Source: Escherichia phage vB_EcoM_PTE-Eco05. From it: DNA of 64,000 bases. Below the pieces are notes generated by a model. That model saw only the letters and a program-made list of their open reading frames with translations, did no database searches and was not told the origin of the DNA. Numbering within the stretch: position 1 is the stretch's first letter; each line of letters begins with the position of its first letter. A program made the translations under genes and the position numbers. The DNA lies in the sequence record PQ306573.1, one strand, 5' to 3'. Shown piece by piece: positions 20,319 through 23,537 of the stretch.

Positions 20319-20555
20319 ATGGGTGGTTATGTAAACATCAAAACCTTTACGCGTCCTGCTGGTGAAGGTAAAGAAGTTAAAGGTATGGAAGTTTCTGTGC
20401 CGTTTGAGATTTATTCAAACGAACATCGGATTGCAGATTCTCATTACCAAATCTTTCCGTCAGAAAAGGCAGCTTATTCTGATGTCGTTTCTGATGCAGC
20501 AACTTGGAAAACTAAGAACGCTGCAATGTTTACCCCTACGCCAGTAAGTGGTTAA
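20319..20555 (+). CDS. soc: Small outer capsid protein Soc
   Basis: 78 aa; ...GYVNIKTF... resembles T4 Soc N-terminus as I recall it; late promoter upstream and strong terminator downstream. Confidence 0.6.
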   Translation: MGGYVNIKTFTRPAGEGKEVKGMEVSVPFEIYSNEHRIADSHYQIFPSEKAAYSDVVSDAATWKTKNAAMFTPTPVSG

Positions 20556-20562
20556 ATAATTT

Positions 20563-20591
20563 AAGGAATCCTTCGGGATTCCTTTTTTTTT
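20563..20591 (+). terminator. Rho-independent terminator (aaggaatcc ttcg ggattcctt followed by T8)
   Basis: 9-bp stem, UUCG loop and an 8-9 nt T tract seen directly. Confidence 0.85.
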
Positions 20592-20600
20592 GTTTCCACA

Positions 20601-20636
20601 GTTTACAACCACTAAAAACTGTGTTAAGATATTTTT
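20601..20636 (+). promoter_or_regulatory. Early-type promoter (GTTTACA, spacer, TAAGATAT)
   Basis: GTTTACA immediately after the terminator. Confidence 0.4.
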
Positions 20637-21100: not shown

Positions 21101-21276
21101 ACAAGATAGTTAAATGGTTTAAAAGCTGGAATGATGGAGTCGGACCAGAAGATTGGTTAGATGTTCTTGAAGAGAATATGGCTAAAGAATTCCAGAAACA
21201 TGAAGAAAAACTCGTCGAAGATGAAGGCGAACGTATTGTAAAACTTTATATGGGTGAACCATCGAGGAAATTATAA
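21097..21276 (+). CDS. Hypothetical small protein (59 aa)
   Basis: ATG overlapping upstream stop (ATGA). Confidence 0.35.
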   Translation: MNKIVKWFKSWNDGVGPEDWLDVLEENMAKEFQKHEEKLVEDEGERIVKLYMGEPSRKL

Positions 21277-21740
21277 TGGATGCTATGTTATTTAAAATGT
21301 ATTTGCTTGAAGCCAAGTCGTTTAAACATATACCAGTAGAAGATAAGACTCCACTAGAAATAGCTATTCTCATTAACAAAAGTCTAAATAATCCGCAATA
21401 TATCGTAGAAGAATTCTGCAAATTGCAGATTCCTAAAGGTTACAAAATTCGTGTAGAGCGAGTTGGAGCTATTACTCGTTCTAAAAATTCTCCGTTTAGT
21501 CTTGAAGAAGGCATAAAGGACTTAGGTTATGAATCTACGGAAAATGCCGTTTATGTGAATCCTGAAAAGCGTTTAGACTTGTTTGAAAAGCGAGACCACA
21601 AGTATTTTGCCAAAAAATACTTTATTACATCATTAGCAGATTTAATCCATTTGCAACGAGCTATTTGGAAATTTTTTAAGACAAAAGGTGTAGCGATAGA
21701 AACATTCTCCGAGCAGCCTAGTTTTTATTTAGGTGAATAA
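21276..21740 (+). CDS. Hypothetical protein (154 aa)
   Basis: ATG overlapping upstream stop (TAATG). Confidence 0.5.
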   Translation: MDAMLFKMYLLEAKSFKHIPVEDKTPLEIAILINKSLNNPQYIVEEFCKLQIPKGYKIRVERVGAITRSKNSPFSLEEGIKDLGYESTENAVYVNPEKRLDLFEKRDHKYFAKKYFITSLADLIHLQRAIWKFFKTKGVAIETFSEQPSFYLGE

Positions 21741-21921: not shown

Positions 21922-22082
21922 AAGAGAAATTTAAAGAGAAATTCTTACTAGAAATCAAGGAAAAAGACTTTGAGACATGGTATCGAATGGTGAAAGGGTT
22001 GACATTGCTTTTTAAAGCATCGTTATTCATGTTAGAACAACCTGGCCCTGATGGTCCTTTAGTAGGAAAGCTTAAAAAGTAG
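21918..22082 (+). CDS. Hypothetical small protein (54 aa), below ORF-track cutoff
   Basis: ATG overlapping upstream stop; uninterrupted frame up to the next promoter. Confidence 0.3.
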   Translation: MKEKFKEKFLLEIKEKDFETWYRMVKGLTLLFKASLFMLEQPGPDGPLVGKLKK

Positions 22083-22113
22083 TTTACATTCCCTCCTCTC
22101 GTGTTATGATAGG
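22082..22113 (+). promoter_or_regulatory. Early-type promoter (GTTTACA, spacer, TTATGATAGG)
   Basis: GTTTACA 55 nt upstream of ORF 22138. Confidence 0.45.
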
Positions 22114-22137
22114 CTTATCTTTAAATGGAGGTCTATC

Positions 22138-22719
22138 ATGATATGTCAATCTGAACTTCAAGAACGCGAATATCTCGCAGCACTAATTGATGATAAATTC
22201 ACTAAACAAGAACAAAACATTCTCTGGGCTTGCACCGATTCTAAGGAAGACCCGGATTTCCACTATGAATTAGACCATCTTGTTCGTAAGCATATGACTT
22301 CTACAGTACCAGTAGAACTCTACCGCGGTGTAACTCCAGAAGAAGTAGAACGTCTTTCACTTCTTTCTGTTGGATGCCATTGGTCTCCTGGACGAGTAAC
22401 ATCGTTCACAACTGATTTCAGTACAGCTCGTCAATTCTCTGGGAGTTGGGAATATCAGACGTATACTATTCTTAGTCTCAGGAATGCTCCATTCATTTTT
22501 GATTACTACCAAAACATGGTTAACATTGTACTCGCCGGAAAGAACCCTAAGCATGTTATAGAAGAAAAGCGTGTTGACGTCCTAGATATGATTGAATCTG
22601 AACAAGAGTACATGGTCTCAGGTATCTCTAGATTTGAGATTGTGGAAATTGAAGACTTAGAATATGACCCTTTATCTCGATTATACAAAATCATTCATTT
22701 GAAAATGTTGAATTTTTAG
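22138..22719 (+). CDS. Mono-ADP-ribosyltransferase (ModA/ModB-like), copy 1
   Basis: 193 aa; R-S-ExE architecture: YRG, S-T-A-R, and EQEYMVSG. Confidence 0.55.
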   Translation: MICQSELQEREYLAALIDDKFTKQEQNILWACTDSKEDPDFHYELDHLVRKHMTSTVPVELYRGVTPEEVERLSLLSVGCHWSPGRVTSFTTDFSTARQFSGSWEYQTYTILSLRNAPFIFDYYQNMVNIVLAGKNPKHVIEEKRVDVLDMIESEQEYMVSGISRFEIVEIEDLEYDPLSRLYKIIHLKMLNF

Positions 22720-22752
22720 TGTACAAACTCTTCCGATGATGATACTATAGAC
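22719..22752 (+). promoter_or_regulatory. Early-type promoter (GTGTACA, spacer, TACTATAGACC)
   Basis: Variant -35 with the conserved TATAGACCTATCA block. Confidence 0.4.
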
Positions 22753-22776
22753 CTATCAACCAGAGGAGAAACCAAA

Positions 22777-23385
22777 ATGTTTATGCCGTATAACGAGTGT
22801 GAAATTGAAGAAATGGTTCGTCGTGCTCAAAACCCCGAATATCAAGATGTATTGCAGTACGAAATTGATAGTCAATTCAACGATAATGAACAAAGCATCC
22901 TTTGGCAGTGTATGGAAAACAAGCCAGACTGTATTCAACAGGAGTTAAGTTCAATCGTTCGTAGAAATTGGACGTCTTCTGTTCCTGAGACAATGTATCG
23001 TGGAATCTCTAAGAAAACTATGGCCACACTCGATGATAAAGGCATTGGTAGTATTATTAAATTTGACAGAGTAATGAGCTTCAGCCCAGTGTTCGGTGTA
23101 GCACGTAACTTTGCTTCATATAATTTTTACGGAACATTTAATATGTTCTGCATCAAAGATGCGCCATTTGCTTTCAACTTCCGTGAACATATGCTTAACA
23201 TGATTCTGGCTGCGCCATCTTGTGAGTTCAATGGAGCTTTCCCTGAAGCGACAAGACGGTCTAATGCTAGACTTATATCTGACGAATGTGAATTTATGCT
23301 CCCTATAGGGACTACACTGCGTGTAGATTCTATTATTCAAGATGGACGTTATACAATCTGGAATCTGTCTATTGTCAGTTACTGA
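22777..23385 (+). CDS. Mono-ADP-ribosyltransferase (ModA/ModB-like), copy 2
   Basis: 202 aa; YRG ... FSPVFGVAR ... DECEFML pattern paralogous to the upstream ORF. Confidence 0.55.
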   Translation: MFMPYNECEIEEMVRRAQNPEYQDVLQYEIDSQFNDNEQSILWQCMENKPDCIQQELSSIVRRNWTSSVPETMYRGISKKTMATLDDKGIGSIIKFDRVMSFSPVFGVARNFASYNFYGTFNMFCIKDAPFAFNFREHMLNMILAAPSCEFNGAFPEATRRSNARLISDECEFMLPIGTTLRVDSIIQDGRYTIWNLSIVSY

Positions 23386-23459
23386 CTGAATTGGAATAAC
23401 CGGATGGAACTCAGAACCATTATAACACATAAAAAATTAAAGCATTTTACGAAAAAAGA

Positions 23460-23492
23460 GTGTACACTACCTGAGGGCATGATATTATAAGC
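23460..23492 (+). promoter_or_regulatory. Early-type promoter (TGTACAC, spacer, TATTATAAG)
   Basis: -35-like and -10 elements upstream of ORF 23538. Confidence 0.35.
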
Positions 23493-23537
23493 TTATCAAC
23501 TAAATGACCTAACGTCCGTAAGACAGAGGAAAATATT

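Follow-up and report, generated by a model that had tools for sequence, protein, structure and literature searches.

Are the two adjacent genes at this locus of Escherichia phage vB_EcoM_PTE-Eco05 (sequence record PQ306573.1) the counterparts of modB and modA of phage T4 and, if so, how far can what is known of the T4 enzymes be applied to them? The stretch of DNA analysed, 64,000 nucleotides long and referred to here as the window, had been read before from its letters alone, and the original prediction was of two tandem, paralogous mono-ADP-ribosyltransferases, each with an early promoter of its own, probably of the ModA/ModB type and directed at different targets. The two neighbouring ORFs have exactly the coordinates and sizes given for them, 193 and 202 amino acids, and both lie on the + strand. 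With a probability of roughly 0.9, we take ORF1 and ORF2 to be the modB and modA of this T-even phage, encoding single-domain, arginine-specific mono-ADP-ribosyltransferases of the R-S-E type, of approximately 200 amino acids, which would follow the scheme of early expression, transfer from NAD+ and T4-like targets proposed below. The genes and their ribosome-binding sites, as read from the sequence, are as follows.

22127..22131, + strand: Shine-Dalgarno sequence GGAGG of ORF1, 6 nt before the ATG
22138..22719, + strand: ORF1, 193 aa, predicted Mod-family Arg-type mono-ADP-ribosyltransferase at the modB position
22763..22768, + strand: Shine-Dalgarno sequence GAGGAG of ORF2, 8 nt before the ATG
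22777..23385, + strand: ORF2, 202 aa, predicted Mod-family Arg-type mono-ADP-ribosyltransferase at the modA position

A spacer of 57 nt separates the two ORFs, and the GGAGG before ORF1 is the same in all six of the phages compared. The proposed paralogy was confirmed by the direct comparison of ORF1 with ORF2, which are 32.7% identical over 159 aa (E 1.3e-26). The best homologues have E values of 1e-120 for ORF1 and 1e-128 for ORF2. When 5.8 billion proteins were searched, the protein cluster closest to ORF1 was 95% identical (‘ribosyltransferase [Escherichia phage AV112]’, 205 members) and that closest to ORF2 was 96% identical (298 member sequences); a modest number of remoter phage relatives was also matched, and PF26816 is the precomputed Pfam label on all of the homologues returned. 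Scans of Pfam-A and NCBIfam gave no family match, PF26816 being evidently absent from the Pfam copy scanned, and we take this as a gap in the library that says nothing against membership; the sole Pfam line obtained, DUF6597 at E 0.15, is a chance match. A profile of the family, searched against 1.84 billion cluster representatives, matched 130 at E ≤ 0.001 and 16 at E ≤ 1e-30, with ART domains within very long proteins among the remoter matches, and the Mod family is, to judge from its sequences, small and phage-centred.

The same profile, applied to the 377 six-frame ORFs of the window, matched only ORF1 and ORF2, with E values of 2e-88 and 3e-83. No third ART was found by this search; an Alt-type enzyme would probably be too distant for the profile, and an Alt-type gene is unexpected in this part of a T4-like genome. 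The notion that the two ORFs and their motifs are chance features of AT-rich phage sequence, to which we give practically no credence and for which nothing speaks except that a list of ORFs is compiled mechanically, is refuted by these homologues, by the 130 representatives that match the profile, by the restriction of its matches in the window to this pair, and by the presence of ribosome-binding sites and predicted promoters. Four antisense ORFs on the − strand (22357-22554, 22506-22694, 22756-22938 and 23116-23430) are inside the strongly supported + strand genes and were set aside as chance.

Alignment to T4 ModA (NP_049635, 200 aa) and T4 ModB (NP_049636, 207 aa) showed each ORF to be homologous to both T4 proteins, with E values from 6e-10 to 1e-32 in BLASTP.

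ORF1 against T4 ModB: 37% identity, 91 bits, E 7e-28
ORF1 against T4 ModA: 26% identity, 42 bits, E 6e-10
ORF2 against T4 ModB: 30% identity, 103 bits, E 1e-32
ORF2 against T4 ModA: 31% identity, 74 bits, E 3e-21

Both ORFs also match PHROG 832, ‘RNA polymerase ADP-ribosylase’, at 1e-37. The gene order in the window is mrh-like, small ORFs, ORF1, ORF2, srd, dda.1, dda and dexA, and that in T4 is mrh, srh, modA.4, modA.3, modA.2, modB, modA, srd, dda.1, dda and dexA; because the order is the same, ORF1 occupies the place of modB and ORF2 that of modA. In phage JK45 the order runs dCTPase-like, soc-like, small ORFs, Mrh-like, two small ORFs, ADP-ribosylase (‘ModB’), ADP-ribosylase, Srd, hypothetical (Dda.1), Dda and exonuclease and, by comparison with the annotated regions of JK45, T4, JS10 and E33, the locus matches the early-gene cluster that extends from soc/mrh/modA.x to srd-dda.1-dda. 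In at least one Karamvirus phage, the locus contains only one mod gene. Many sequenced T-even coliphages match the 4 kb surrounding the pair at 97.7-98.3% identity; ECO111 5-P, vB_EQ1, NRG-P0074, JK45 and APCEc01 are among them, and in these near-identical phages both genes go under the name ‘RNA polymerase ADP-ribosylase’, ‘ribosyltransferase’ or ‘ModA or ModB ribosyltransferase’. The pair is a known gene family at a known locus, annotated already in near-identical genomes, and corresponds to the usual module with which T-even phages take over the host. The assignment to ModA/ModB-type host-takeover enzymes is upheld by the homology to the T4 proteins, the PHROG match and the modB-modA synteny, and also by the retained R, S and ExE residues and the R-S-E fold of the models, which are described in the following paragraphs.

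In order to identify the catalytic residues, we used an alignment of 36 sequences, T4 ModA and ModB included. The residues E25, L29, C32, K36, L45, P58, R63, G64, S89, A97, F100, Y106, R145, E155, E157 and M159 (ORF1 numbering) are invariant in it, and the catalytic set of ORF2 is R75/G76, S101 and E170/E172. The corresponding codons are at these positions.

ORF1, + strand: R63 at 22324-22326, S89 at 22402-22404, E155 at 22600-22602 and E157 at 22606-22608
ORF2, + strand: R75 at 22999-23001, S101 at 23077-23079, E170 at 23284-23286 and E172 at 23290-23292

The arrangement first described for the two proteins, R / S-T-x / E-x-E, stands at its two ends and has to be corrected in the middle. The YRG string found in both ORFs holds the invariant Arg-Gly (R63/G64 and R75/G76), and the strings EQEY and ECEF contain the true Glu-x-Glu motif (E155-Q-E157 in ORF1 and E170-C-E172 in ORF2), both glutamates of which are invariant across the 36 sequences. 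The strings STAR (ORF1) and GVAR (ORF2), which had been named as the Ser motif, are present but fall within the helix after the true Ser strand; the Ser is 6-8 residues upstream, in TSFT and MSFS, where S89-F-T91 forms part of V-T-S-F-T-T in ORF1 and S101-F-S103 forms part of V-M-S-F-S-P in ORF2, the first Ser being invariant. Both R63 and R75 align with R73 of T4 ModB, for which the double mutation R73A,G74A has been reported to abolish both ADP-ribosylation and RNAylation, and in T4 phage carrying this mutant ModB, lysis was delayed and the burst reduced (PMC10468400).

In ORF1 and its closest relatives, ~10-30 residues usual at the N-terminus are missing and the conserved M-[LF]-P-x-G-T after the ExE is replaced by M-V-S-G-I-S. 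These departures might be taken to mean that one copy has lost catalysis and persists as a pseudoenzyme with a role in binding or regulation only. Such a loss of activity seems to us very improbable, as R, G, S, E-x-E, A97, F100, Y106 and R145 are intact in both copies, both structural models are confident and complete ART folds, and both genes are intact ORFs in hundreds of phage records.

The models were built with AlphaFold2 on a 33-sequence alignment, and gave a pLDDT of 89.3 and a pTM of 0.84 for ORF1, and 94.3 and 0.88, respectively, for ORF2. In both, an N-terminal helix bundle is followed by an ART core, in which the Arg is on strand 60-64 (ORF1) or 72-76 (ORF2), the Ser is on strand 88-91 or 100-103 with a helix following at 94-101 or 106-113, and the second Glu of the ExE is at the start of a strand. 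Foldseek comparison with the PDB returned only R-S-E mono-ADP-ribosyltransferases as top matches, the names being Vis, Certhrax, CDTa, HopU1, iota Ia, XopAI, C3, VIP2, SpvB and Tre1. Searching the PDB with the single protein sequences gave chance matches only (nucleophosmin and Cas9, E ≥ 0.012) or none, and the family profile gave a single marginal match to XopAI (E 0.11), with the ExE regions aligned; no structure of a Mod-family protein was found in the PDB by sequence. On the evidence of the models, ORF1 and ORF2 have the ART fold of the R-S-E clade. The Arg- and Asn-specific toxins of this clade (C3/VIP2/iota-type; Vis, Certhrax, C3, Ia/CDTa, HopU1, XopAI and Tre1) are only 10-20% identical in sequence to ORF1 and ORF2, and they lack the N-terminal helical region, with its conserved EQ-x-LW-x-C-x-x-K motif, that is specific to the phage Mod family. 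Furthermore, the phage Mod enzymes are made inside the infected cell, whereas the bacterial R-S-E toxins are delivered.

An early promoter of T4 is made up of UP, −35, TGn and −10 elements (PMC2988021), and sites of this kind were located upstream of both genes and of srd.

22082..22110, + strand: predicted T4-type early promoter of ORF1, −35 GTTTAC(A), TGn and −10 TATGAT (TGtTATGAT), with an A/T-rich stretch upstream
22719..22748, + strand: predicted T4-type early promoter of ORF2, −35 GTGTAC(A), TGn and −10 TACTAT (TGaTACTAT), in the 57-nt spacer
23460-23488, + strand: promoter-pattern site just upstream of srd

The first base of the ORF2 site is the final base of the stop codon of ORF1, and all three sites show TG two bases ahead of the −10 and are preceded by A/T-rich sequence. 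The + strand of the window contains 19 occurrences of the pattern GT[GT]TAC-N16-18-TAnnnT and the − strand three, compared with about 2.9 per strand in shuffled sequences. A generic sigma-70 scan found the ORF1 site; the ORF2 site, with eight of the 12 consensus positions, fell below its threshold. The −35, TG and −10 of the ORF1 promoter are also conserved before T4 modB and before the JS10, E33 and KMB20 genes, and the hexamers of the ORF2 promoter are kept in JS10 and E33 (GTTTACA ... TACTAT) despite the diverged sequence of the spacer around them, which is the pattern that a functional promoter should leave in an alignment. The expectation of a separate early promoter for each gene is therefore borne out at the level of sequence, the sites being both strand-biased and phylogenetically conserved.

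Which copy corresponds to which T4 enzyme is less sharply defined. In the full-length neighbour-joining quartet, 111 of 200 bootstrap replicates grouped ORF1 with ORF2 and ModB with ModA, compared with 68 that gave positional orthology and 21 that gave the third topology. When the quartet was restricted to the catalytic core, 150 of 200 replicates (75%) paired ORF1 with ModB and ORF2 with ModA; the N-terminal helical region alone gave only noise. A neighbour-joining tree of 49 sequences placed T4 ModA on a long branch, apart from ORF1 and ORF2. By segment, the first half of the core brings ORF1 closest to ModB (41% identity), and the second, C-terminal half brings ORF2 closest to ModA (36%). 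The best non-T4 matches of T4 ModA are the downstream genes, JS10 modA at 86 bits and ORF2 at 74 bits, and with the upstream genes it scored 42 bits (ORF1) or gave no match (JS10 modB). ORF2, however, scores higher with ModB (103 bits) than with ModA, and T4 ModB shows no clearly greater similarity to the upstream than to the downstream genes. Judged by these sequence comparisons, positional orthology, with ORF1 as ModB and ORF2 as ModA, is likely, though its support is no more than moderate.

T4 ModB resembles ORF1 in family, size, possession of a single domain and upstream position in the pair, as well as in the conserved early promoter in front of it, the equivalence of R73 to R63 and the common S and ExE motifs. 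It differs in being only 37% identical to ORF1 (and 30% to ORF2), and ORF1 has a shorter N-terminus and lacks the insertion YTYEDTDGL that precedes the ExE helix in ModB. T4 ModA resembles ORF2 in family and in its downstream position adjoining srd, its closest match in the window phage is ORF2 rather than ORF1, and the two share FP[ED]..R..N..L[IV]SDExExMxPxG in the C-terminal core. They are nevertheless only 31% identical overall, the N-terminal region of ModA is strongly diverged, and W-R-G and S-A-S in ModA correspond to Y-R-G and S-F-S in ORF2. The arrangement of the pair differs too, because T4 modB and modA overlap by four bases, so that modA has no spacer in front of it, whereas the spacer in the window contains a predicted promoter belonging to ORF2.

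The closest distinct pair is instead the modB/modA of Dhakavirus (JS10, YP_002922366 and YP_002922365; also E33), which has the same sizes (189 and 204 aa), a spacer of ~54-57 nt and conserved −35 and −10 hexamers, although the backbone is that of another genus. The identities of the window proteins to those of T4 and of JS10 are listed below.

ORF1/modB: 37% to T4, 65% to JS10
ORF2/modA: 31% to T4, 56% to JS10
Srd: 68% to T4, 45% to JS10
Dda.1: 79% to T4, 33% to JS10
Dda: 78% to T4, 59% to JS10

The switch in similarity falls near the end of ORF2. T4 ModA and ModB are ~30-39% identical to both the window and the Dhakavirus types, and the identity of T4 ModA across phage records is bimodal, with about 500 records at ≥ 95%, three at 60-95% and 420 below 60%. 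Read most simply, these figures make the T4-type pair the outlier, its cassette having been replaced or its divergence accelerated in the T4 lineage, and the window pair would represent the type that Dhakavirus also has. As the T4 enzymes are only ~30-39% identical to the window proteins and the neighbouring genes are far better conserved, the label ‘RNA polymerase ADP-ribosylase’ on both genes has been transferred by position.

These figures raise the question of whether the two proteins, though active ADP-ribosyltransferases of the Mod family, are functional equivalents of T4 ModA and ModB at all, or whether their targets or their use of NAD-capped RNA have come to differ through divergence or exchange of the cassette independently of the backbone. 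The latter would be consistent with mod genes of 31-37% identity to T4 between flanks of 68-79%, with the reverse relation to JS10 (65% and 56% in the mod genes, 33-59% in the flanks), with the only characterized pair being the outlier among the types, and with the failure of the full-length phylogeny to recover positional orthology; in addition, most viral ARTs have been described in a survey as fast-evolving conflict proteins (PMC9503650). We regard such non-equivalence as unlikely, though plausible enough to be weighed, because synteny, size, early-promoter control and all of the catalytic residues are conserved, the core-only quartet favours positional orthology at 75%, and ADP-ribosyltransferases often retain their targets at low sequence identity.

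We return to the pair as the modB and modA of this phage, for which the following course of events is proposed. Judging from the promoter sequences, host sigma-70 RNA polymerase would begin to transcribe each gene as soon as infection has occurred, using the strong early promoter of T4 type in front of it. The conserved residues and the predicted fold suggest that NAD+ would be held by the β-strand Arg (R63/R75) together with the Ser motif (S89/S101), and that the Glu-x-Glu (E155/E157 and E170/E172) would catalyse the transfer of ADP-ribose to arginines of host proteins. In T4, ModA ADP-ribosylates Arg265 of both α subunits of RNA polymerase (PMC2988021), and ModB ADP-ribosylates ribosomal protein S1, EF-Tu and trigger factor (PMC10468400, PMC2988021) and RNAylates S1 and L2 with NAD-capped RNA (PMC10468400). 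By analogy, Arg265 of RNA polymerase α is the most likely target of the downstream enzyme (ORF2), and ribosomal protein S1, EF-Tu and trigger factor are the most likely targets of the upstream enzyme (ORF1), which may also accept NAD-capped RNA in ‘RNAylation’; the two copies would then have different targets, as had been suggested from their divergence. The assignment of targets, which we infer from T4, is the weakest step of this mechanism, the identity to the T4 enzymes being low.

All functional knowledge of ModA and ModB, whether of α-Arg265, of S1, EF-Tu and trigger factor, or of RNAylation, comes from T4, and the T4 targets are not safely transferable to ORF1 and ORF2 because this pair is 31-37% identical to that of T4 while its flanks are 68-79% identical. 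A broader proposal, which we put forward tentatively and consider rather doubtful, is that the Mod pair of this widespread coliphage lineage, which the Dhakavirus-type phages share, differs in function from that of T4, whose enzymes would have become outliers by cassette replacement or accelerated divergence, and that the ORF1/ORF2 type has a different set of targets or a different ability to RNAylate. If this were true, the possession of an early promoter by each gene would permit separate dosage or timing of the two enzymes. The divergent pair would provide a natural comparison set for the determinants of target choice, and of RNAylation, in ModB-like enzymes.

Comparison of window positions 22138-23400 with T4 and with Dhakavirus JS10 showed that the two adjacent Mod-family ADP-ribosyltransferase genes, ORF1 (modB position) and ORF2 (modA position), have 31-37% identity to their T4 counterparts but 56-65% to those of JS10, whereas the flanking srd, dda.1 and dda match T4 at 68-79% identity but JS10 at only 33-59%. 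The mod genes and their flanks are mosaic, being discordant in their relatedness to the two phages, and the similarity switches near the ORF2 stop. It is the characterized T4 mod pair that looks like the evolutionary outlier. Homologues of ORF1 and ORF2 bear the precomputed Pfam label PF26816; a Pfam-A scan gave no match for either ORF, the copy scanned evidently lacking the PF26816 model.

In a three-way comparison of the intergenic interval that separates ORF2 from srd (23386-23537), short blocks were found to be kept in the window, T4 and JS10, although their surroundings have diverged:

Within 23386-23537, block 1, CATTATAnC...TTTAAAGCA, located before the promoter of srd
Within 23386-23537, block 2, CGTCCGTAAGA, immediately 5' of the srd ribosome-binding site

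Block 2 might serve as a signal in translation or RNA processing.

The whole window was scanned on both strands for a T4-early-promoter-like pattern (GT[GT]TAC-N16-18-TAnnnT), which gave 19 sites on the plus strand and three on the minus strand, against approximately 2.9 expected per strand; most include TGn. The plus-strand sites make up a dense set of candidate early promoters across the region, examples being:

14970, 15404, 15975, 16405, 16716, 20601 (+)
22082, 22719, 23460, 26601, 27559, 36757 (+)
37269, 39842, 40431, 42340, 56542 (+)

The site at 20601 directly follows a predicted bidirectional terminator-like site, 3' of the soc-like ORF (20319-20555):

20563-20584, G+C-rich hairpin with a perfect stem of 9 bp, each strand having a T-run

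The block of small ORFs lying between soc and the mod pair shows still greater plasticity than the pair itself. It includes:

21276-21740, 'Mrh-like' ORF, 154 aa, upstream of the mod pair, with only ~22% identity to T4 modA.3 and likewise to JS10 modA.3

In contrast to the tandem arrangement in the window, the Karamvirus KMB20 has just one Mod-family gene between a modA.2-like ORF and srd:

L005 (Enterobacter phage vB-EclM_KMB20) 2363-3040, lone Mod-family gene, 225 aa

Its product scores 122 bits against T4 ModB, above the score of either window ORF. Since KMB20 has a single Mod-family gene, not all Tevenvirinae carry the tandem pair.
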